This document shows positions 1,982 through 62,937 of a stretch of DNA of 64,000 nt, piece by piece (within the stretch, counting starts at the first letter, position 1; every line of letters starts with the position of its first letter). This stretch comes from an uncultured Thermodesulfobacteriota bacterium (lineage in GTDB: Bacteria; Desulfobacterota; BSN033; WVXP01): positions 4,911 to 68,910 of the forward strand of contig CAYFYO010000002.1 in assembly GCA_964347335.1 (NCBI GenBank), read 5' to 3'. The position numbers and the translations under genes were made by a program. The notes under the pieces are model-generated. The model saw nothing but the letters and a program-made list of their open reading frames with translations. It was not told where the DNA came from and did no database searches.

Positions 1982-3364
1982 TCAGGCCGCCTTCAGTCCG
2001 ATTTGCTCGAGACGCTGAATAATCTCAGCGAACTCCCTTTCAAAACTCACTTTGTTGCGATGGGTGTTTCCCCCGAGCAGCACCTCCCGGGGCTTTCCAT
2101 CCTTTGAGGAGATATAGACCCAGAGTCTGCGGTGGGGTACGAAAAAAGCCATAATCGTGCCAAGAATGAGTAGACCACACCCAATCCAGACGACCCAGAC
2201 TCCGGGGTCCTTGGTCACCTGAAGAACCGTGAACTCCCTGATGAGGATATCTTTGAGGGTATATACGAAACGCCCCCCTCGCTTTTCATCAAAGTCAGGA
2301 ATCTCTTTGAACAGCCAGATCCGACGCGGAGGCTGATCCTTAGAGAAAAGAGCGACCTGAATCCCTTCTCCGAAGGTATGGACTTCCGGAAAATACCCCA
2401 GGAGCTGAAGGGCTATCTCGTCCTCAGGAACTCTCACCCGCTGTCCCTGACGAATCTGGACCTCGTAGGAAGCAACGCCGTCCCTTTCGTTCACCCGGAT
2501 GACAACCTCCGCCTCCTGGCCATAGGAGGATTGATAGAACTTGAGACCCCGATGGGTCATCGGATGGTTCACCCGGACCTTCTGTCGGCGGATTTCCTGA
2601 CCATTTTCCAAAACGGTCAGACTGCTCGTGTATTCACTGACGAATCTGTTCGGCCCGGGAGTGTCGTAATAGGATATATCAAAATCATCACATCGAATCT
2701 GGTAACCCAAGGGATAGCCTACGAACCGGCCATTCTTTCGGAGAGAGACCTGATCGACCGTCTCCCCCTCAACAATTCTGACGATACCCTTAAAACCAAA
2801 GACCGATCCCACCATTCCTCCAACCAGGATAACGATAATGCTCAGATGGGCAACATAAACCCCGAAACGTCCATAGCGACCCTTCTCGAAATAGAGGAGA
2901 AGGCCCTGGGATTTTTCAATCCGCCTGGGTTCACCGAAAAAGCGGCGGATGGTTTTCTGGATCTTCTCCCCCAACCCCTTTCCTACCTTAGCCCCCCGAA
3001 GGTTCCTCCTCAAGGGCAGCGCCTGAATGCTTTTGGGACTCAAATCAACTCGTTGATGAAAAACCTGCCGCCAAAGGGAGGGAAGTCGCTCGAGGGAACA
3101 GAAGACCAGATTGAGCACGAGCAGGGCCAGAATGGCCAAGAACCACCATGAATGGTACATATCGAAGAGGCCAAAGAAGTCGAGGATGCTGGCGAGATTG
3201 GGACCATATTCGGCAAGGTACTGCTGGGGAGTGCCTTGTTGCAGGATGATCGTTCCCAAGATTGAAGTGGTTGCAAGAAGGATAAGAAGGAATATCGTCA
3301 GTCTCAGGGAGGCGAAGAGGTTCCAAACGACAATACTTAGCCCACTGGAATCTTTCTTCTTCAA
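1982..3364 (-). CDS. resB: cytochrome c biogenesis protein ResB/Ccs1 (system II)
   Basis: N-terminal TM helices, a large periplasmic domain and a C-terminal TM. ResB-like sequence (LRLTIFLLILLA... WWF..LLVLNLV). 460 aa. Confidence 0.75.
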   Translation of the reverse strand: MKKKDSSGLSIVVWNLFASLRLTIFLLILLATTSILGTIILQQGTPQQYLAEYGPNLASILDFFGLFDMYHSWWFLAILALLVLNLVFCSLERLPSLWRQVFHQRVDLSPKSIQALPLRRNLRGAKVGKGLGEKIQKTIRRFFGEPRRIEKSQGLLLYFEKGRYGRFGVYVAHLSIIVILVGGMVGSVFGFKGIVRIVEGETVDQVSLRKNGRFVGYPLGYQIRCDDFDISYYDTPGPNRFVSEYTSSLTVLENGQEIRRQKVRVNHPMTHRGLKFYQSSYGQEAEVVIRVNERDGVASYEVQIRQGQRVRVPEDEIALQLLGYFPEVHTFGEGIQVALFSKDQPPRRIWLFKEIPDFDEKRGGRFVYTLKDILIREFTVLQVTKDPGVWVVWIGCGLLILGTIMAFFVPHRRLWVYISSKDGKPREVLLGGNTHRNKVSFEREFAEIIQRLEQIGLKAA

Positions 3365-3479: not shown

Positions 3480-4490
3480 TTATTGAAATTCGATCCTCTT
3501 TTCCATTCCCGATGAGACACGAACCTCTCCCTTCGAATCAATGATCAGCGTTTCCACCCCGGCCAGTTCCTCAACCAAAGGAATCCCCTTCTCCGGTCCC
3601 AAAACAAAGACGGCCGTGGCCAGGGCGTCTGCCCAGATCAACTCGTCATGAATGACGGTCACACTTTGCGACTTCCTTGCCGGAAATCCAGTTGAGGGAT
3701 CGAGGATTTCATGATACCGAACGCCATCTCTCATAAAGTATCGCTCATAGTCTCCAGAGGTGGCAACGGAATCGTCTCTCGCCTCGATGGTCGCTAGAAT
3801 TCTCGATTTGTCCCTCGGATCCTGGATTCCGACAGCCCAGGGTGTACCCAGCTTGGTACCGGCCGTTCTGAGATCACCACCAGCGTTCACGATGAAGTCT
3901 CGGAATCCCGAGTCCTGAAGAAAACGAACAGCCAGATCCACTGCATAGCCCTTGGCGACGCCGCCGAGAACGATTTCCATCCCCTCTTTTCTCAAGAAGA
4001 GGGTTCTCTCCCTTTCGTCGATTTCGAGTAACCGGTAGTCTACCAACCGAAGTGATTCTCTGACCTCAAGTTGAGAGGGAAGCCGATTTTCCTGACGACA
4101 TCTATCCCAAAGATTCACCAGACTTCCTACGGTGATATCAAAGGCGCCATCGGACAGGTCGGATGTTTCCAGGGCGACCTGGATGACAGAGAGAAGATCG
4201 GAGCCCACGGTTACCCCCTTTTTGCCGGCATTCCGATTGAGACGCCAGACCGCACTCCCCTCGATTCTTCGACTCATGAGTCTTTCGATTCTCTGCATCT
4301 CCTGAAAAGCCCCTCTGAAAGCATCAGCAGTTGCTGTGTCGTCTGGAGCGATCAACGTGATCTCAACCAGGGTACCCATGATGTACTGGGTTCGCTTCAG
4401 AATCCCTGGGCTTTTTGGCTGACAACCAGCCCAAAATATGAGCTGAATGATAGAACACACGCAGAGGTATCTCAAAAAAAAGACCTTCAT
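3480..4490 (-). CDS. apbE: FAD:protein FMN transferase ApbE (lipoprotein)
   Basis: Lipobox ...FWAGC after a signal peptide. ApbE-family conserved blocks (GGVAKGYAVD, TSGDYERYF, DP.TG.P). 336 aa. Confidence 0.8.
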   Translation of the reverse strand: MKVFFLRYLCVCSIIQLIFWAGCQPKSPGILKRTQYIMGTLVEITLIAPDDTATADAFRGAFQEMQRIERLMSRRIEGSAVWRLNRNAGKKGVTVGSDLLSVIQVALETSDLSDGAFDITVGSLVNLWDRCRQENRLPSQLEVRESLRLVDYRLLEIDERERTLFLRKEGMEIVLGGVAKGYAVDLAVRFLQDSGFRDFIVNAGGDLRTAGTKLGTPWAVGIQDPRDKSRILATIEARDDSVATSGDYERYFMRDGVRYHEILDPSTGFPARKSQSVTVIHDELIWADALATAVFVLGPEKGIPLVEELAGVETLIIDSKGEVRVSSGMEKRIEFQ

Positions 4491-5152: not shown

Positions 5153-5351
5153 CGTGGGACTCCTCTCAATGGAATCTTCTGAGAACAGTGTGACGTGGCG
5201 AGTTTCGCATTGTACACACTCCGGTTCGGCAACTCAAGCGGTGACCCTATGAGATTCGCCAATTCCGCCCTCACAGGACAAAGGTAAAAGGTTCAATGAG
5301 ACGCACTCCTAACAACCCTTTGTCATTGGTGATTGGTCACTGGTCATTTGC

Positions 5352-6175: not shown

Positions 6176-6365
6176 GGCAGAACGACGTCATTCAAACAGC
6201 CAATCCCTTCAAGGAGCAGGTCGATTCGCTTAATCAATTTCTGGTAAATCTGAAACGAATCCCAATCCCCCAAAATCCAAAACAAGAGATATCTTTGAGA
6301 GTTCCGAATACATCTCGGGTCAATCCGGAGAATGTTTTGGTCACTTGATATTCGAGTTTTGGAAG

Positions 6366-6614
6366 AGTTCGCAAGAGATGATTTTGACTCTGGCCCGATC
6401 TTTCGAGAAGAAAAATCAGGCCACCCACTGAGCCCCCCCGGGGCCATGCAATACAGGTTTCACAAAGAATCGGGTCGTGGGATCAAATCAATTGACACAT
6501 GCGAAGGCGTTGACGCTTTCGACCTGAATCGCCTTCTCAGCGATTCAGGTCGAAACTCAGGGATCTCAGTGTGCTCTGCGAGAGATGGAAACTGACTTTA
6601 TGCACTTGCACTCG
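6366..6614 (+). repeat. about 250-bp dispersed repeat, copy A (hairpin-rich, non-coding)
   Basis: About 85% identical to 8206-8452 in the same orientation. Contains a perfect 12-bp stem GACCTGAATCGC/GCGATTCAGGTC and a GGCC...AAAATCAGGCC hairpin. Reading frames are not conserved between the copies. Confidence 0.85.
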
Positions 6615-6704
6615 TCTGACGTGGCTCTTCGGTCAACCGAGAATCCATTGCAATTCGTCTGACAATCTTTTAACTTATGACCGGTGCTTCCCTCAGGAGG
6701 AAAA

Positions 6705-7358
6705 ATGGATCTGGAAACCGCTATAGAGAATCGCAAGAGTTATCGTGCTTTTTCCTCGAGACCCGTCGATCAGGAGCTCGTCGAGGAGATTCTTCGCCGG
6801 GCAGGAAGAGCCCCATCGGCGCTGAACGTCCAGCCCTGGGAGGTGACCGTCGTGATGGGAGAAGAACTGGAGCGCTTGACTCGAAGGCTTCTCCGAGCCT
6901 ATCGAGAGCGATCGGTCGCGTGCACACCTGGAGCCGTCCGTCCCCTGCCGGCGCGTTTTCAAAAGCGAAGGAGAGACTCTTTCAGGCCACTGGCCCGACT
7001 CCTCGATCGAGAGCATCTCACATTGGACGCCTTCGTCGGAGAGGGGAGCTGCCGTTTCTATGGGGCACCGGTCGCAATTCTCATCTGCATGGACGAGGCC
7101 TTCTCCAAGGAACGATACCTTTGCATCGGGGCGTTCCTTGGTTATCTTGTGCTGTCGGCTCATGATTTGGGTCTTGCCACGTGCCCTGTGGGATTGATCT
7201 CAGCCTACGAAGAAGACATCCGGGAACAACTCAACATCCCAGAAGCCAAGCGGGTCGTCATCGGCGTGGCAATCGGCTATGGGGATGAGTCCTCACCTTT
7301 GAGCCAGTTCAGCACGCCAAGGGACCCCCTCGAAGGCTACGTGAGATGGTTCATGTGA
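6705..7358 (+). CDS. nitroreductase-family protein
   Basis: MDLETAIENRKSYRAFSSRPV...SALNVQPWEVTVV has the nitroreductase fold signature. AGGAGG lies 4 nt upstream of the ATG at 6705. Confidence 0.8.
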   Translation: MDLETAIENRKSYRAFSSRPVDQELVEEILRRAGRAPSALNVQPWEVTVVMGEELERLTRRLLRAYRERSVACTPGAVRPLPARFQKRRRDSFRPLARLLDREHLTLDAFVGEGSCRFYGAPVAILICMDEAFSKERYLCIGAFLGYLVLSAHDLGLATCPVGLISAYEEDIREQLNIPEAKRVVIGVAIGYGDESSPLSQFSTPRDPLEGYVRWFM

Positions 7359-7375
7359 GGGGGAGGCGCGGGGAA

Positions 7376-8125
7376 ATGGCAAAAATCCTCATCGGAACAA
7401 GCGGTTATAATTATCCGCACTGGGGCAAAGGAGTCTTCTACCCCAAGGGGACACCTCAGCGTCAGTGGCTCGAATACTACAGCCGTCATTTCGACACTGT
7501 GGAACTCAATGTGACCTTTTACAGGCTCGTGAAAAGACAGGTGTTTGAAGGCTGGTACCGGAGGACTCCAGAGAAGTTCCTTTTCGCTGTCAAAGGTAGC
7601 CGATACATTACTCACATCAAAAGGCTTCGGAATTGTGAGGAAGCAATCCAACGCTTCTCAGAGAACTGTCAGGGTCTCGGGGAAAAACTCGACGTTATCC
7701 TCTGGCAACTTCCGCCTCAGTCTGTCTACCGGGGGGAACCTTTTGCCACTTTCTGCAAACTCGTGTCCGGGTTTCCCGTTTTAAGCAAAACACACCACGC
7801 CTTCGAGTTTCGACATGACAGCTGGTTCGTCCCTGAGGTCGTTCGTCTTCTTGAGCATTATGGATTCTCTCTGTGTATCTCTGACTCTCCAAATCTTCCT
7901 TCTTGCGAGACGGTCACTGCCGATTTCGTCTACCTCAGGTTTCACGGAAGCCAAGCCCTTTATGGTTCCAAGTATACAGACGAGGAACTCACCCGCTGGG
8001 CCCAGAAGGTTCAGTTCTGGCTGAACCAAAGCAGAGCGGTCTATGCCTATTTCAACAACGACGTGTCGGGTTATGCCCTGGAAAATGCCCGGCGTCTCCG
8101 AGAACTCGTCACGCCAAACTCATAG
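7376..8125 (+). CDS. DUF72 (YecE-like) family protein
   Basis: IGTSGYNYPHWGKGVFYP...DVILWQLPP is the DUF72 signature. GGGAGG lies 9 nt upstream of ATG 7376. Stop is TAG. Confidence 0.75.
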   Translation: MAKILIGTSGYNYPHWGKGVFYPKGTPQRQWLEYYSRHFDTVELNVTFYRLVKRQVFEGWYRRTPEKFLFAVKGSRYITHIKRLRNCEEAIQRFSENCQGLGEKLDVILWQLPPQSVYRGEPFATFCKLVSGFPVLSKTHHAFEFRHDSWFVPEVVRLLEHYGFSLCISDSPNLPSCETVTADFVYLRFHGSQALYGSKYTDEELTRWAQKVQFWLNQSRAVYAYFNNDVSGYALENARRLRELVTPNS

Positions 8126-8205
8126 GAGCGCATTAAACGTCTTCACATTGGCTTTTCAGGACAATGCCCGACCACGCGCTCTGTCGCCCTTGCTTGGGCC
8201 CACAG

Positions 8206-8452
8206 AGTTCGCAAGAGATGATTCTGAGGCTGGCCTGATTTTTTGAAAGGAAAATCAGGCCACCCATTGAGCCCGTTTGGAGCCATGCAATACAGATTTC
8301 ACAACGAATCGCGTGGGGGTATCAAATCAATTGATCCATGCAAAGCGCCGACGCTTTTGACCTGAATCGCCCGCTCAGCGATTGAGGTCGAAACTTAGAG
8401 ATCTCCGCGTGCTCTGCGAGAGATGGAAACCGACTTCATGCGCCTGCATGAG
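8206..8452 (+). repeat. about 250-bp dispersed repeat, copy B
   Basis: Same element as 6366-6614. Here the GGCCTGATTTT/AAAATCAGGCC stem is perfect and the 12-bp stem has one mismatch. It lies about 200 bp upstream of the cNMP/DUF4388 gene. Confidence 0.85.
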
Positions 8453-8658
8453 CCCATTTTCCCTCATCCTTACAGGAAGACTTTCTCCATCGAAATCGAC
8501 GATTTGCTGAGGCAGTGCAGGGCTTGACCCACCCATCGAAAGAGGGTACTTTTAACACCATATCTCGATGGGATCGCCTTTTCTATTCCCCATTTGTGGA
8601 CATCTTTACGGAGCTACGGCGGTGCCCCGGAATCCTGTGGCGCTCAGGGGGACCTATC

Positions 8659-9669
8659 ATGAATGATCCATTGAACAAGGACGAAGTTCTGGCTTTCCTC
8701 AAACAATGTCAGCTCCTTGACTCTCTTCCAGACGAAAACCTCGGCCAGATCGTCGAGAAGTGTACCCTTGAAACTTACGGACCAGGCTCAGTGATTTTTG
8801 ATATCCAGGATCCCTCCGACAAGCTCTACATCATCAAATCAGGGGTTGTCGAGATCTCCCGAACCGGTCCAAAGACCCAGAAAATGGAGGTTGTCGCCTA
8901 TCTTGGAGAGCGGGAAATGATCGGCGAGATGGCCATTTTGACGGGTTCGCCTCGCGGCTCAATGGCACGTGTCCCGGAAAAGGCCGAACTGTTTGTCCTG
9001 TCCCGGAAGGCTTTTGTGGGTCTCTTGGGGAAGATTCCCCTTCTGACGGTTCGGCTCGCTACCATACTGGCAAAGAGACTCGAAGCATGGATTCGAAAGG
9101 AGAGACTGCAGATCAAGGGACAGGAACTTTCCGGAAGTCTCGAGTACTTCGATGCCTCGACACTGATTCAGACGCTGGCTCAAAGTGATCGGACTGGACT
9201 CCTAACGATCGTTGATAAGAACAACGAACCGGTAGGAGAAATATATATTGAAAAAGGAGGGGTCCGCGCGGCCAAGCTCGGTCACCTGAGAGGGGTCGAG
9301 GCATTCTATCAGGTCTTTCAATCTGTCAGCGGCGAAGCTTTTACGTTCAAGGTTGGAGAATTTGAAGCGATGCAGCAGGAAGAAAGGATTCCCTTTCGAA
9401 CCATTGCGCTCGTATTTGAGGCAAACCGGCTTCGAGACGAACTCAATAAACTCAAGCAAGAGATCCCGGACGCCAACAAGGTGTTTGTCCCGAAAGCCCA
9501 GGGATTCTCTTGGAAAGACAAGGAGACATCGCCACTGGCAAAAGAGATCTGGGATCTCATTCGTCAGGGCAAGTCTTTGAGTTTCATTCTCGAAAATGTA
9601 ATGGCATCCCATTCTTCAGTTTATAGCATCATATCTGAGATGCTCAAACAGGGCCAGATCAGCTCCTGA
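8659..9669 (+). CDS. cyclic-nucleotide-binding domain protein with C-terminal DUF4388 domain
   Basis: N-terminal Crp-like cNMP-binding beta-barrel (GSVIFDIQDPSDKLYIIKSGVVEI...GEMAIL). Followed by an LEYFDASTLIQTLAQSDRTGLLTI DUF4388-like segment. ATG at 8659 is preceded by GGGGGA. The ORF-track N-terminal extension is made of repeat copy B. Confidence 0.65.
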   Translation: MNDPLNKDEVLAFLKQCQLLDSLPDENLGQIVEKCTLETYGPGSVIFDIQDPSDKLYIIKSGVVEISRTGPKTQKMEVVAYLGEREMIGEMAILTGSPRGSMARVPEKAELFVLSRKAFVGLLGKIPLLTVRLATILAKRLEAWIRKERLQIKGQELSGSLEYFDASTLIQTLAQSDRTGLLTIVDKNNEPVGEIYIEKGGVRAAKLGHLRGVEAFYQVFQSVSGEAFTFKVGEFEAMQQEERIPFRTIALVFEANRLRDELNKLKQEIPDANKVFVPKAQGFSWKDKETSPLAKEIWDLIRQGKSLSFILENVMASHSSVYSIISEMLKQGQISS

Positions 9670-9863
9670 AAACGAGCAGCCTGAAGGGGCTCGCCTCGAC
9701 GGCTCTCTGCGAAAAACCCCCGTGATCCGGGTGCTGCCTCTCGATCTGTCCACTCCGTCTTTTTTTCTAAAAGCTAGAGAACGCCCAGGTGCGCAGGTAT
9801 TCGTCTCCATAGTGAAACGATCTCCATGGGTCGCCTGGGGCACGCCGAAACGAGAATGACCAG

Positions 9864-10391
9864 GTGATTGAATTGAGACGTTATCTCCCCTCTTACGACA
9901 CGTGTTTTGTCTGTGGGAAAAAGAACCCGATAGGATTAAGATTGTGCCTGTATGTCGAGAATGGTCAGGTGAAGGCCGAATTCAGGCCTAGGGAGGAACT
10001 GTGTGGATTCTCTGGAATCCTCCACGGGGGGATCGTCTCATGCGTGGTCGATGAGGGCCTCTGGTGGTCCTCAGCTGTTGCATCCGGAAGGCTTGTGGTG
10101 ACCAAAGATTTGAGAGTCAACTACATCCGGCCTTTGACCCTCCGAAAGACGTATATCGTGGAAGCAGACCCCGCTCGAGCTGACGGAGAGTTTTACGTGT
10201 GTAAAGGAAGAATCACTGATCGAGCCGGTTCGACTTGCGCCGAGGGAGAAGGCACCTATTTTCCACTCAGATGGGGAAAGAACCGAAATCCCGATGAAAT
10301 CCTCTCGTACGTCGACGAAAACGGGGATCCCCTCCCCGAGGGTAACATCTATCAATTTGAAATCAGGGAAACGACGGGGACCGAGGAATAG
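9864..10391 (+). CDS. PaaI/4HBT-family hotdog thioesterase
   Basis: CFVCGKKNPIGLRL...LHGGIVS...D is the PaaI thioesterase signature. GTG start. Stop is TAG. Confidence 0.7.
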   Translation: MIELRRYLPSYDTCFVCGKKNPIGLRLCLYVENGQVKAEFRPREELCGFSGILHGGIVSCVVDEGLWWSSAVASGRLVVTKDLRVNYIRPLTLRKTYIVEADPARADGEFYVCKGRITDRAGSTCAEGEGTYFPLRWGKNRNPDEILSYVDENGDPLPEGNIYQFEIRETTGTEE

Positions 10392-10526
10392 GTCGTGATT
10401 GCCCTATCGAGGCTGCTGGCACAATAGCGAACGGAGGACGAAAGCCTCTTCCGATTATGAAGGAGGGAAAAAGACCAGCATATACCATCGTGAGGCGTGG
10501 CGCCTGTGGGCCAAGACAAGAGACTT

Positions 10527-10688
10527 TCAAGAATCGGGAGGCACTTCTTTCAAGTCCTTAACCCTGTGCTCGAGTCCTTCGGCGCATTTCAGGAAGAGCA
10601 AGAGGACCTCCAAATCCTCGTCAGAGGCTACATAGACCTCGCAATGTCTTTCTGTTGATGGGTCAGTAATCTTGACCGCATAACGCAT
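10527..10688 (-). CDS. small hypothetical protein (53 aa) missed by the 60-aa ORF cutoff
   Basis: ATG at 10688 has GGAG 8 nt upstream. Translation is MRYAVKITDPSTERHCEVYVASDEDLEVLLLFLKCAEGLEHRVKDLKEVPPDS. There is weak resemblance to N-terminal HicB-like antitoxin folds. Confidence 0.3.
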   Translation of the reverse strand: MRYAVKITDPSTERHCEVYVASDEDLEVLLLFLKCAEGLEHRVKDLKEVPPDS

Positions 10689-10898
10689 AGGCTAACTCCT
10701 ATCTGTTCATACCCCTGTTTTGTGAGGGACAACTGTCCTTATTTGGAAAAACCGTTTCTCAACGCAAAACCAACCGCCTCGGTTTCCGATCACCCCCTTA
10801 TTCTAGCCGGACTTATGGCTAAAGTCTATTGACCTGTGAGAGGAGTTTCCTCAGTTTTGTGGACGCTCATGTCCGTGAGGGACGTTTGCAGAAGCGTT

Positions 10899-11025
10899 GG
10901 GGACCCATCGAGGGTGAGCAGGAAGGGGAAAACCCCGCCTTCAGAGCGGGGAAGGGGCAAGTATTCCCCACCTGCGAACCCCGAAGGGGTCAACGCGAGA
11001 GCAAGGGAGCGAAGGGATATGAGCG
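10899..11025 (+). repeat. about 130-bp structured dispersed repeat, copy 1
   Basis: Inverted copy of 12985-13111 (about 85% identity). Contains a hairpin CCCCGC-CTTCAGA-GCGGGG flanked by GAAGGGG on both sides, and ACCCC-GAA-GGGGT. Confidence 0.8.
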
Positions 11026-11132
11026 TTCCATCTAAAGATCCAAGATTCTCTTGAAGCATCAAGAAGTTATAAATTTCTTGCTTTGAAACCCCAGGCAACT
11101 CCTCACCTGTGAAGCAGGCTGGAGCATTTCTT

Positions 11133-11618
11133 CTAGTGCGCCTTTTCCGTGTGACGCTCCCTGGTGAGCCCCGGGTGAAGTCTGGGGCCAAGTTCCTCGT
11201 CGAGGGCCGGTTTCCAAATAGAGACCTTGATTTCGTCCTGATACCGATGCACCGTATAACTCAGGCTCACAGACACCATCAAGTAGCCCCGCTCAAATCC
11301 CTCTTCATCTGTGATTTTGATCGCCGAACGGTATCCCCTGATCCTCCTCTGAATTTCGGCGACGTACGGTCCGGGTCGGTCCATGCCAACCCTTTCAGTT
11401 CTATCGGTATGGCGCATATAAACCCGTTTTCCATCGTTTGGGATGTCTAAGAGAACGGCATACATGTCAGGCGTGAAACTGTAAACGTAGATCTCGTATT
11501 CCCTATCTGGAATCTCGGCCACATTGACCCGCTCGGATGGGATATAGCGGTAACATCCCAAAAGAAGAACCAAGAAAAGGGGCACAGAGGCGACCTGTAA
11601 ACATCTTTGTATCTTCAT
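11133..11618 (-). CDS. hypothetical lipoprotein
   Basis: Signal peptide with lipobox LLLGCY. 161 aa with no family recognised. Stop is TAG. Confidence 0.5.
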   Translation of the reverse strand: MKIQRCLQVASVPLFLVLLLGCYRYIPSERVNVAEIPDREYEIYVYSFTPDMYAVLLDIPNDGKRVYMRHTDRTERVGMDRPGPYVAEIQRRIRGYRSAIKITDEEGFERGYLMVSVSLSYTVHRYQDEIKVSIWKPALDEELGPRLHPGLTRERHTEKAH

Positions 11619-11832
11619 CAGACAATCCCCTTCTCAGCCCGCTCTTTTATTATACACCGCAATTTCTCAGAAAGCCGTTCTTATCCATTCGGGATTTTAC
11701 TACGATAAGCTTTGAAGGGATTCCTGCCCGAAAGGAGAACTGGGCGGTTGGCCTCAAATGTATGATGGGAGTGAGGAGGTTGGACTAAAATCGATTAGGG
11801 GCGGGATCTTTTATGAAGGTGGAAGCATCTCC

Positions 11833-61367: not shown

Positions 61368-62756
61368 TCAACGCCTACCAATTCTCTTTTTGAACCTACT
61401 AACCGAGTTAATCTCAATGTCTAACAGTTCCGCTATCCTAAACTTCGCATCGATCCCTTTGGCTCGGTTAGGAAGCGATCTTACCAAACCGATATCCAGA
61501 TCGTCTCTCACTTCGGCCATCAATACAGGGTCCGATAGATCCCTAACCGACACGGATAGTCTGCCGGCCACATACTCCTTCGCCTCTTTGATCTTCATAC
61601 CATCGGTCATTTGCATACGTGCCACAAGATCTCCCGCGGTACGCATTCCGCCCATGCCCGAGGCAACGGCGTGAGTTATCGCCATACCCAAAGGATCGCC
61701 TACACCAACCTACAATCCGTCCAACCGACAGATTTCAACCATAGCTTTAGACGCTCGGGATACTGCATCTATTGGAGGGTTGTCCACCACAGGAACCGCA
61801 CCTACGCCCATACCCATGTTCACATGGATCGGAATAGTTGAATTCTCAACACAGGTCTTCACAAATGTCACAGCCCGGGCCAAGTTCCATGGACAGGACT
61901 TGGAGGTATTCGTATTGACTACCGGGCCAAAAATAGTCACCCCTGCTTTTTCAGCCAAGGCGACTTGCTGGTGAGGATACAGCCCCGCTAGCCGTACGCC
62001 CTGATAGGTCAACTCCCCATGCATTCCAAGGATGAACTCGCCGGCCATGCCGATCTCGACACACATGTCGGGGTATTTCCCTTTGAGAATCTCGCAAGCC
62101 TCCAAGGTCGCCAGAAAGTCCGCGTCCCCAGCAGCCCCAGTGGTGTCGAAGTTGATCCCATCAGCCCCAGATTCATACATGCCGCTCGCCACATAAACCA
62201 TATCCTTAACTGCGTGCTGCACAGCAGCTTCGTAGGATGCTCTTGCTTCGACGATTTTCCCTTGAGGGAGTAACTCTGCAGGATTCGGTGTAGGGCCATC
62301 AGGCTGACTGTAGGACCCGAGATTCGGCATGGCTCCATAGAACAAGGGGATGCTTGTCACCAGGAGGGCCTGTTCAAATTCCTGCTGTTCGTCACCCAGA
62401 ATGGTCTTTACGGGTTTAAAACTGTAGTCTATATGGGCCATCTCCATGGTATCGGCCCCCAATGCGCGTTCCATAATTTGTATGTTATGGATTCTCCCGG
62501 TGTTTATTCCTAACCGCTGAAGCTTCAAGGTGCCACCATCAAAAGAAAGGACCACCTCGTTTCCTGGCTCTACACCTACAACTCTCGCTGGAGAAGCACA
62601 GATCTCAAAAAGATGCCCTAATTCGTCCTCCGAAAGGGAAGGAACGTCACCTTTCTCAGCAGCGTCTATCGTCCCTTCCTCCAAGTCCTTGGTTAATTGG
62701 GATTCATCTATTTCGATGAAAGAACCGTCGCCCATCCGTGTGATTATTTTGTTCAT
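61368..62756 (-). CDS. mtbB: dimethylamine methyltransferase MtbB-family homolog containing one in-frame TAG (61710-61712): candidate pyrrolysine read-through or nonsense-split gene
   Basis: N-terminus [11 protein letters not shown]...EIP.LS.DE and internal blocks [76 protein letters not shown]. Then [38 protein letters not shown]... continues in the same frame with no RBS or ATG. Total 462 codons. Confidence 0.6.
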
Positions 62757-62937
62757 AAACAATTCCTTTTTTGTCCAAATCTAGAACTCTTGAAATCTCG
62801 CACAGTGTCACCAGAACAGCCCCAGCCAAATTCGGAGGTTGTTATCAAATGCTCTTCAAACGACAACTCAATAACATATCCTCAACCTTCCGCTTTCGCG
62901 GGAGATCCCAGTTGGAATGGCATCATGGGTTACACCT

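Follow-up and report, generated by a model that had tools for sequence, protein, structure and literature searches.

Near the start of a 64-kb stretch of contig CAYFYO010000002.1 from an uncultured Thermodesulfobacteriota bacterium (the window; coordinates are positions in this stretch, and L numbers label the metagenome and genome-collection loci compared with it), a direct repeat of ~250 bp brackets a nitroreductase-DUF72 gene pair, with each copy in the 5′ region of a plus-strand gene. What is this repeat, and does it serve the genes beside it? The first-pass annotation offered three answers: a mobile repeat resembling miniature inverted-repeat transposable elements (MITEs) or repetitive extragenic palindromes (REPs), a shared cis-regulatory or leader RNA element, or a pair of direct repeats able to excise or amplify the cassette between them. 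We favour the first, at a probability of about 75%: the repeat is a mobile or once-mobile intergenic element with no dedicated regulatory role here, and its two copies, A and B, are independent, old and partly deleted insertions of a non-autonomous, non-coding repeat from a large, modular superfamily of intergenic, hairpin-rich repeats in the Desulfobacterota/Thermodesulfobacteriota. The copies of this family are many and dispersed, differ in presence between orthologous sites, do not code for protein and are not oriented in any fixed way to genes; the family retains its hairpins by compensatory Watson-Crick change, even as single copies decay.

A dispersed, modular repeat and its empty sites

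Alignment with blastn matched 6364–6610 to 8204–8448 at 84.6% identity over 247 nt, with two 1-nt indels (E 3e-74), which confirms the place and the similarity first noted for the repeat; there is no third copy in the whole window. A 20-mer from the most conserved block, the 3′ box, retrieved copies from 12 loci in sediment metagenomes. By BLAST and alignment these are full copies, 75–87% identical, with a common start and end, and in most copies, including copy B, the similarity runs ~110–135 nt further 5′. The full-length element is ~340–385 nt long and consists of three modules, and the members range in size from 250 to 385 nt. The extent first described for copy A stood, while that of copy B proved too short, as comparison with full-length relatives carried it 86 nt further 5′. 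In nhmmer searches, copy A matches positions 111–362 of the family profile (E 3.5e-87) and copy B positions 2–360 (E 3.4e-106).

Module 1 runs from ACTNATACnnACGCATTAAATG to CAATGCCCGACCAC (in a fuller reading, ACTNATACnnACGCATTAAATGTCTTCACATTGGCTTTTCAGGACAATGCCCGACCAC). Module 2 begins with CTCTCGCCCGCTC and ends with TCGCTCGAG, enclosing either a variable hairpin or CCCTTCGAC..GCTCAGGG, sometimes duplicated; its fuller reading is CTCTCGCCCGCTCCCCTTCGAC(TTTGCTCAGGGyAGGCCATTCGGCC)TTGCTCAGGGTCGCTCGAGCCCAC, where the bracketed unit is present or absent, and its internal sub-repeat ..TTCGnCTTTGCTCAGGG.. is single or double depending on the copy. Module 3 (~250 nt) has a closing stem (CAGAGTTCGCA..) around two inverted copies of one hairpin motif, H1 (loop TGAGAGG) and H3 (loop CCTCTCA), and finishes with GTGCTCTGYGAGAGAT and a short tail. 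No solo copy of module 1 or module 2 was seen in the window or in the first loci. The two window copies and the 12 metagenome loci have the same 3′ box, the latter having been retrieved by a 20-mer of it; the GTGCTCTGYGAGAGAT motif of the box also occurs in genome copies retrieved through module 2 instead. Of the two stems originally described, the 12-bp stem said to be in both copies is perfect in copy A, where it extends to 16 bp, and only approximate in copy B, which has one mismatch and one G·T. The GGCC..GGCC stem of H1 is as described, perfect in copy B and with two C·A mismatches in copy A, where the H1 loop reads CGAGAAG against the family consensus TGAGAGG.

No open frame is conserved across copies, with 1–9 stops in every frame of 10 copies, in keeping with the non-coding nature proposed at the outset. 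Searches with translations of spurious open reading frames (ORFs) on the element added the further independent copies L019 and L020 and a diverged partial copy in L016. Translated, module 2 gives ..LPFDFAQG.. in a plus frame and ..GSSDPELVEGERARE.. in a minus frame (for example, L010 1–306 and L002 52–160). Such spurious element-derived ‘proteins’ (P0053–P0056) are present in public protein collections, as are ‘..PFDFAQG..’ and ‘..FPSLAEHTEI..’ peptides, and the family thus contaminates protein databases. The literature on MITEs in taxa whose names begin with Desulfobacter, and on the ‘FDFAQG’ peptide, yielded nothing relevant.

At least 12 independent copies besides A and B were found in metagenomes, and those with the same boundaries occur in at least nine distinct contexts. 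The neighbouring genes of distinct loci are unrelated housekeeping genes: carB with carbamate kinase, class II ribonucleotide reductase (RNR), serA, trpS, a TRAP permease, a sensor histidine kinase, efp and cox1. There is no synteny outside the element between the window and the metagenome copy loci, and a reciprocal empty-site test found no orthologues of the genes flanking the metagenome copies within the window; the window’s 1080-aa ORF is not carB but a UvrD-like helicase. The two window copies are 84.6% identical to each other, compared with 86.5–86.9% to L006 and L011. A Logan contig that encodes exactly the window’s nitroreductase and DUF72 proteins corresponds to window 6569–8168, and it breaks inside copy A, at the conserved 3′ box, and within the module 1 extension of copy B, as expected of a multi-copy repeat in a de Bruijn assembly.

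Empty sites were sought on contigs carrying orthologues of the cyclic nucleoside monophosphate (cNMP)-binding/DUF4388 protein encoded downstream of copy B, graded by identity (80% in L014/L015, 77% in L016, 71% in L018 and 69% in L017). In L014/L015, L016 and L018 the DUF72 gene is followed directly by the cNMP gene, with gaps of 288, 193 and 164 nt, respectively, versus 533 nt in the window. Copy B is absent from this orthologous gap in L014, L015, L016 and L018, and homology between these relatives and the window resumes at ~8481. In L016, the nitroreductase gene also lies upstream of DUF72, and neither window copy is present at these sites. Upstream of the nitroreductase gene, homology to L016 runs to 6363, where ..TTGATATTC.. 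ends in TTTTGGA, and resumes at ~6614 with GTCTGACGTGGCTCTTCGGTCAAC..; both junctions are sharp, and the site of copy A is taken by ~80 nt of unrelated sequence. This intergenic region of L016 has a short, diverged family member of its own, oppositely oriented and ~150 nt further upstream, which suggests that the region upstream of the nitroreductase gene is a repeated landing site. The metagenome-assembled genome (MAG) that contains the empty site L018 (CAYGBW01) has family copies elsewhere, namely L048 (264 bits), L057 and L111. Together with the copy peculiar to L016 and the closer similarity of A and B to L006 and L011, the empty sites indicate that the nitroreductase-DUF72-cNMP order is ancestral and that copies A and B are separate, old, lineage-specific insertions into it.

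The superfamily core and its hairpins

Scanning the genome collection with a 22-mer from the 3′ box gave 0 matches. A second scan used only the module 2 anchor boxes, CTCTCGCCCGCTC-N(15–45)-TCGCTCGAG, and returned 105 stretches, of which ~92 are in Desulfobacterota-type MAGs. Thirteen matches, in loci of >62% G+C (Actinomycetes, Alphaproteobacteria and similar), look like chance. The others lie in Thermodesulfobacteriota/Desulfobacterota MAGs, including Desulfobacterales, Desulfobacteraceae, Desulfatiglandales, Syntrophobacterales and several ‘Deltaproteobacteria bin’ chromosomes; by this pattern there are copies at 26 loci in MAG CAYGBK01, 8 in WVXP01 and 5 in one single-cell genome. The window-family profile matches most of the genome loci over module 2 and H1, and often over H3 and the 3′ box too.

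What these loci have in common is a core whose 5′ part reads CTCTCGCCCGCTC - variable hairpin - TCGCTCGAG - YYCNCAGAG-N4-CAGAG and whose 3′ part, which follows optional cargo hairpins, reads CTCTG..CTCTG - GTGCTCTGYGAGAGAT. The cargo consists of H1 (loop TGAGRGG), H3 (loop CCTCTCA) and sometimes other hairpins nested in the H1 loop; minimal versions of the core, 60–85 nt long, have no cargo hairpins (L041, L047, L105 and L118). Outer shells differ by subfamily. In the window’s family the shell is module 1 plus the GGAAACTGACTTCATGCGCTTGCA tail, and in the CAYGBK01 subfamily ~100 nt flank the core at either side and terminate in an inverted repeat of 22 nt (CGGGCCGTTGCTCAAATCCCTT).

Several observations on genome copies belong beside this description. 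In some subfamilies the H1 loop holds an extra hairpin, as in TTTTTTGA[CCCCGGTTAAATAGGCTTCGCATTTAACGGGGCAAGGAC]GAAAAATCAG (examples are L049 ~2900–3070, L106 ~6786–7080 and L116 ~9–269), and modules thus evidently insert into one another. Two further repeat modules, ..CATATCTCCTCGCTCCC..GTTGACCC.. and ..CTCTGCAAACGTCCCTCAGGGACATGAGCGTCCACAAAACTGAGGAAACTCC.., flank the core at ~150–300 nt on either side in L026, L039, L055, L058, L077, L082, L092, L102 and L107 (CAYGBK01 and WVXP01 MAGs). Both arrangements of these modules around the core are found, as though the inner unit inverts within another repeat or had entered it in either orientation. A local cluster of five profile matches in 6 kb is found at L045 400–6100 (single-cell genome AM-311-M20, JBHPCZ010000034). 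The flanks of one genome copy also contain a tRNA and a thiamine pyrophosphate (TPP) riboswitch (L048 2461–2591, minus strand; 55.8 bits, just above gathering), both unrelated to the element.

Covariation analysis, one of the checks proposed with the first-pass annotation, found strong Watson-Crick covariation across subfamilies and almost none within the close family. With 10 close copies, RNAalifold showed almost invariant helices, 1 and 0 compensatory pairs on the two strands and a positive (unfavourable) covariation term; the few stem substitutions in these copies would form G·U if H1 were read on the minus strand and H3 on the plus strand. As the close family is uninformative on this point, divergent subfamilies were needed. 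The L016 variant keeps both loops while showing a G-C to A-T swap in H1 and swaps at 6 of the 12 H3 pairs. Across subfamilies, in sets of 23 distinct H3 and 18 distinct H1 sequences, double-sided changes affect 14/14 pairs of H3 and 12/14 of H1, and 96% and 93% of the cells are paired, respectively. None of 500 shuffles reaches the observed covariation, and slid registers collapse.

The spacer of module 2, which the scan had left unconstrained, provided a further test. A perfect stem of at least 5 bp is present in 23 of 82 distinct spacers, against 0 expected from shuffles, and the stem sequences differ widely (TCCCCCGA/TCGGGGGA, ATCACGCC/GGCGTGAT, TTCCCGT/ACGGGAA and CCCCGCAG/CTGCGGGG). Hairpin formation is therefore under selection in those copies that give rise to new ones. 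Cells with G·U make up ~1–2%, no commoner than other mismatches, and the mismatch spectrum of the stems is symmetric (G·T 13 versus A·C 18), with no strand preference. This pattern of Watson-Crick swaps with G·U favoured on neither strand points to selection acting on DNA hairpins.

Could the element, or its core, instead be a multiplied gene for a structured non-coding RNA, such as a scaffold or guide RNA of an RNA-guided transposon system, a self-cleaving ribozyme or a protein-sponging small RNA? Its invariant unpaired boxes are combined with strongly covarying helices across orders of the Desulfobacterota, folds of single copies exceed those of shuffles in stability (z −2.4 to −4.2), and the TGAGAGG and CCUCUCA loops are complementary, with the changes in copy A matched in both (GAGAAG/CTTCTC). 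The loop complementarity, however, is a direct consequence of the relation between H1 and H3, two inverted copies of one motif that present the same CCTCTCA loop on opposite strands; an earlier idea of kissing loops was dropped for this reason, as it does not amount to independent evidence. A structured RNA would also have to be reconciled with the rarity and strand symmetry of G·U just described (in the close family, substitutions point to opposite strands, minus for H1 and plus for H3), with the random orientation to genes set out below, and with stem-breaking mutations and large deletions in individual copies. No conserved promoter or terminator was found: in a promoter and terminator consensus scan, counts were no higher than in shuffles and nothing within the element was convincing. 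The Rfam scan proposed with the first-pass annotation likewise gave no match to the element at gathering or permissive thresholds (Rfam 15, E<=10) in the window, the full-length metagenome copies or 16 genome loci. We therefore regard an origin as RNA genes as improbable, and retain a mobile DNA repeat as the preferred reading.

Orientation, neighbouring genes and the question of regulation

Orientation was assessed with greedy longest-ORF gene calls around 93 genome copies. Relative to their upstream and downstream genes, respectively, 21 copies are (+,+), 25 (−,−), 12 (−,+) and 9 (+,−), with no bias. A bias seen early in a small sample of the main family, in which 4/4 co-directional gene pairs had the element in sense orientation, was not upheld across the 93 copies and is put down to chance. 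Downstream starts lie ~77–545 nt from the element, and convergent genes face some of the copies.

If the copies were mobile in origin, they might still have been co-opted, once transcribed with neighbouring genes, as structures that stabilise or process mRNA or as protein-binding sites, as with the REPs and bacterial interspersed mosaic elements (BIMEs) of E. coli or pneumococcal BOX. The hairpins are very stable, and the element is intergenic and often abuts the stop codon of a co-oriented upstream gene. In three unrelated loci this stop lies, in the same frame, inside the element’s 5′ motif AAC-TNA-TAS; in the window, alignment of 5′ termini identifies the terminal motif of copy B, ACTCATAG, with the last codons and stop of DUF72, the TAG at 8123–8125 falling within the overlap. 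Either insertion takes place almost precisely at stop codons, or the stop is furnished by the element. Random orientation speaks against a co-opted function, as does the decay of individual copies, with stem-breaking substitutions in L019 and L020 and deletions in L008, copy A and copy B. These breaks and deletions fit neutral decay after insertion, and co-option seems to us quite improbable.

A shared cis-regulatory leader, promoter module or riboswitch-like element for the nitroreductase operon and the cNMP/DUF4388 gene is more doubtful still. It would explain why both window copies lie upstream of plus-strand genes in sense orientation, at ~92 nt from the nitroreductase start and 206 nt from the cNMP start, distances that agree with those first given, and it drew some support from the small sample of sense-oriented pairs. 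The orthologues that have no element nevertheless keep conserved upstream sequence of their own, which in the window lies between element and start codon. From ~8519 to the start codon of the cNMP gene, a block (GGCTTGACCCACCC..GGAAAGAGGGTACTTTTAAC..) is conserved in all four relatives without copy B, so this gene has its own upstream region. A TTGACC at 8524–8529, separated by 17 nt from a TACTTT at 8547–8552, lies within it and may be the promoter. This shared stretch of ~140 nt (8519–8658; GGCTTGACCCACCC..GGAAAGAGGGTACTTTTAACACCATATC..GGGATCGCC.., common to L014, L015, L016 and L018) is better conserved than would be expected of a plain promoter, and may represent a long structured 5′ untranslated region belonging to the gene itself. 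L016 likewise shares the sequence that separates copy A from the nitroreductase start, including TTGCAA-17 nt-TAACTT (6648–6676), the likely promoter of that gene. Add to this that the downstream genes are functionally unrelated, that their distance from the element is so variable, that no Rfam family matches, that G·U tolerance is not strand-specific, and that orientation is random, a result which the first-pass annotation had itself named as an argument against a regulatory role, and a regulatory element becomes very improbable.

Finally, it is scarcely credible that the direct repeats bound a nitroreductase-DUF72 unit able to move or amplify, whether as a composite transposon, as an integron cassette or through excision by recombination. 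In favour of this idea, they flank a 1.6-kb two-gene unit in direct orientation, and the more distant relative L017 has neither gene at this position. Against it, L016 has the nitroreductase-DUF72-cNMP order with neither repeat, and L014, L015 and L018 have the DUF72-cNMP order without the repeat. The copies differ by 15% and resemble copies from other genomes more than each other, so that they did not arise with the cassette, and the exact nitroreductase and DUF72 proteins recur on only one other contig, a fragment of the same locus. In L017 (JGI Ga0374083_0690645, 7208–11757) the order is ApbE-MFS transporter-small ORF-cNMP/DUF4388-thioesterase, and the DUF2147 and 143-aa genes of the window are replaced along with the nitroreductase-DUF72 pair; the gene content between ApbE and the cNMP gene varies independently of the repeat.

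The features discussed are collected in Table 1. Pfam confirmed the gene assignments made at first pass for the nitroreductase, DUF72 and cNMP-binding/DUF4388 proteins. Far from the repeat, the window also holds a minus-strand mtbB gene for dimethylamine methyltransferase (61371–62762; Pfam Dimeth_Pyl, 7e-154) with a single in-frame TAG, which is followed by a strong PYLIS_2 match (61613–61712; 89 bits, E 1.5e-20) and then by ~112 more codons; these mark the source as a pyrrolysine-using deltaproteobacterium.

Table 1. Repeat copies, their component parts and adjacent genes (window coordinates unless another locus is named).
Feature	Position	Strand	Description
Copy A	6364..6613	+	5′-truncated, module 3 only: closing stem, hairpins H1 and H3, 3′ box, 3′ tail
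Hairpin H1, copy A	6392..6422		GGCCCGATCTTT / loop CGAGAAG / AAAAATCAGGCC; two C·A mismatches
Hairpin H3, copy A	6517..6555		Perfect 16-bp stem TTTCGACCTGAATCGC/GCGATTCAGGTCGAAA, loop CTTCTCA (inverted-repeat search)
3′ box, copy A	6571..6592	+	GTGCTCTGCGAGAGATGGAAAC; core motif GTGCTCTGYGAGAGAT common to whole superfamily
Copy B	8118..8454	+	Module 1 (8118–~8170), internally deleted module 2 (~8171–8203), module 3 (8204–8452)
Hairpin H1, copy B	8228..8265		15-nt arms, 93% complementary; loop region TTGAAAGG (inverted-repeat search)
Hairpin H3, copy B	8355..8393		Loop CCGCTCA; one G·G mismatch (GCGATTGAGGTC) and one G·T
3′ box, copy B	8409..8430	+	Same 22-mer as 3′ box of copy A
Nitroreductase gene	6705..7358	+	PF00881, 1.8e-28; ancestral neighbour, outside element
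DUF72 gene	7376..8125	+	PF01904, 3e-75; last codons and stop within element 5′ motif
cNMP gene’s own conserved upstream region	8481..8658	+	Aligned with L014, L015, L016, L018; downstream of element
cNMP-binding/DUF4388 gene	8659..9669	+	Pfam; outside element; orthologue series of 96–66% identity
Stop in 5′ motif, DUF72	8118–8125		TAG
Stop in 5′ motif, class II RNR	L012 ~5281–5285		TAA
Stop in 5′ motif, ChaN/PDZ lipoprotein	L011 ~3715–3719		TGA
L016 family member	Within L016 352–981; element-like part 560–900	−	Diverged, short

Ends, mobilisation and relation to known elements

How, then, would such a repeat have spread? Copying probably takes place on DNA, through an enzyme that is encoded elsewhere, acts in trans and would recognise the hairpins together with the invariant boxes, probably in single-stranded form. 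Copies A and B would be passive relics, A having lost modules 1 and 2 and B part of module 2, and would influence the nitroreductase, DUF72 or cNMP genes only incidentally. The one concrete effect seen is that copy B supplies the last codons and the stop of DUF72.

A number of points weigh against this reading. In principle, precise loss rather than gain could account for the empty sites; at 75–87% identity between copies, recent movement is not demonstrated; and the gene calls of the orientation test were crude longest-ORF calls. The sequences used for H1 and H3 covariation had been selected as hairpins, and invariant single-stranded boxes, covarying helices and complementary loops would suit a structured RNA as well. 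No transposase-like gene recurs near copies when ORFs of at least 100 aa are clustered across L023–L127 (~0.7 Mb), where the recurring clusters are spurious element ORFs and generic paralogues (ABC ATPases and Ser/Thr kinases), and none of the window’s 10 largest ORFs, all ordinary chromosomal genes, encodes a mobilising enzyme. No consistent target-site duplication was seen at copy ends, and the flanks of the empty sites are too diverged for the target to be reconstructed. The consensus terminal inverted repeat of the window’s family is only 8 nt long (CGCATTAA), with a z of 1.6.

Other candidates for terminal features were considered as well. Target-site duplications picked out by eye (ATAC, and TCCAC in L011) did not hold across copies, and an inverted repeat read by eye (CGCATTAAAT/ACTTCATGCG) was not significant for the window’s family in gapped alignment with shuffles, for which reason the strict label ‘MITE’ was dropped. 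L003 has a terminal inverted repeat of 10/10 nt (z 2.6), and the sister CAYGBK01-type consensus has one of 22 nt (19/22; z 5.7). ATAC (or TTAC/TATC/ATAG) stands 2 nt before ACGCATT in 7/7 full-length copies, and an ATAC-like tetranucleotide recurs immediately upstream of the 5′ end in 5/7; it lies within a longer conserved terminal motif that is itself preceded by conserved bases.

The mobile repeat of the first-pass annotation is thus supported by dispersal in unrelated contexts and by empty orthologous sites for both copies. We file the element as MITE- or REP-like in behaviour and not as a strict MITE, REPIN (REP doublet) or palindrome-associated transposable element (PATE), because no target-site duplication, mobilising enzyme or fixed target was found and the terminal inverted repeat of the window’s family is not significant. 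In behaviour it comes closest to modular intergenic repeats of the pneumococcal BOX type, to Correia-type MITEs and to REP/REPIN elements. BOX elements of Streptococcus pneumoniae have the form boxA-boxB(n)-boxC and are ~100–200 nt long. Like them, the present elements are short, modular intergenic repeats that occur in multiple copies and do not code; they contain a varying number of internal sub-repeats (here ..TTCGnCTTTGCTCAGGG.. in module 2), are predicted to form stable stem-loops, have no transposase of their own and lie close to gene ends. Unlike BOX, to which they bear no sequence relationship and which belongs to another phylum, they are larger (250–385 nt) and share an invariant core with subfamilies that have different outer shells.

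Typical features of MITEs are seen in small size (<~600 bp), lack of coding capacity, dispersal in multiple copies and presence/absence polymorphism. The repeat resembles the Correia/NEMIS MITEs in being non-autonomous and dispersed, in its insertion polymorphism between relatives and in insertion beside or into gene ends, and its sister subfamily even has 22-nt terminal inverted repeats. Correia elements of Neisseria duplicate TA on insertion. The window’s family differs in that its terminal inverted repeat is not significant and no target-site duplication was found, and we know of no parent transposon for it.

With the REP/BIME/REPIN group, mobilised by REP-associated tyrosine transposases (RAYTs; TnpA_REP, of the HUH type), it shares palindromic hairpin units arranged as an inverted pair, tens of copies per genome, and Watson-Crick covariation without a G·U preference, as expected for single-stranded DNA substrates. 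Its hairpin units are, in contrast, longer (~33–39 nt) and lie within a larger element, ~95 nt from each other; a GTAG-type 5′ motif was not observed, and minimal members have neither H1 nor H3. A RAYT gene is usually flanked by REPs; none was seen within the 64-kb window or the 8-kb locus fragments. PATEs derived from IS200/IS605 are similar in having no clear terminal inverted repeat or target duplication, conserved hairpins and, in the present case, an ATAC-like tetranucleotide 5′ of the element. Here, however, the large hairpins are internal rather than subterminal, the ATAC is 2 nt from a conserved block, there is no tnpA or tnpB nearby, and there is no orientation bias relative to genes. 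The element is unlike riboswitches and leaders, as it has no fixed sense orientation or position, is not conserved with orthologous genes and has no Rfam match, and unlike integron attC cassettes, as the same gene order occurs with and without the repeats.

A bolder proposal concerns the core itself. It is unlikely, though not far-fetched, that the superfamily core is a functional structured nucleic acid defining a new mobile system in the Desulfobacterota. The invariant part common to all subfamilies is CTCTCGCCCGCTC-hairpin-TCGCTCGAG...CAGAG/CTCTG stem...GTGCTCTGYGAGAGAT, with optional H1 and H3 and their complementary loops. Rather than transposon debris, the core might be the single-stranded DNA substrate of an uncharacterised HUH/RAYT-like enzyme, REPIN-like but a much larger modular unit that nests into other repeats; alternatively, it might be a structured RNA (a guide scaffold or ribozyme) that promotes its own spread.

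In conclusion, a false lead at this locus is removed: the repeat is neither a riboswitch nor a shared leader, nor does it delimit a nitroreductase-DUF72 cassette. The sequence family was previously uncatalogued; the kind of repeat is ordinary, selfish or neutral, and not a gene switch. What makes it of interest is its breadth across the Desulfobacterota, the invariant core in different shells, and the nesting. The superfamily lies outside Rfam 15 and is widespread in uncultured lineages of sulfate-reducer type (Desulfobacterales, Desulfatiglandales and Syntrophobacterales), where repeats of this sort fragment metagenome assemblies, create spurious ORF calls and can alter gene ends. The conserved boxes and covarying hairpins provide a concrete handle for finding the mobilising enzyme.

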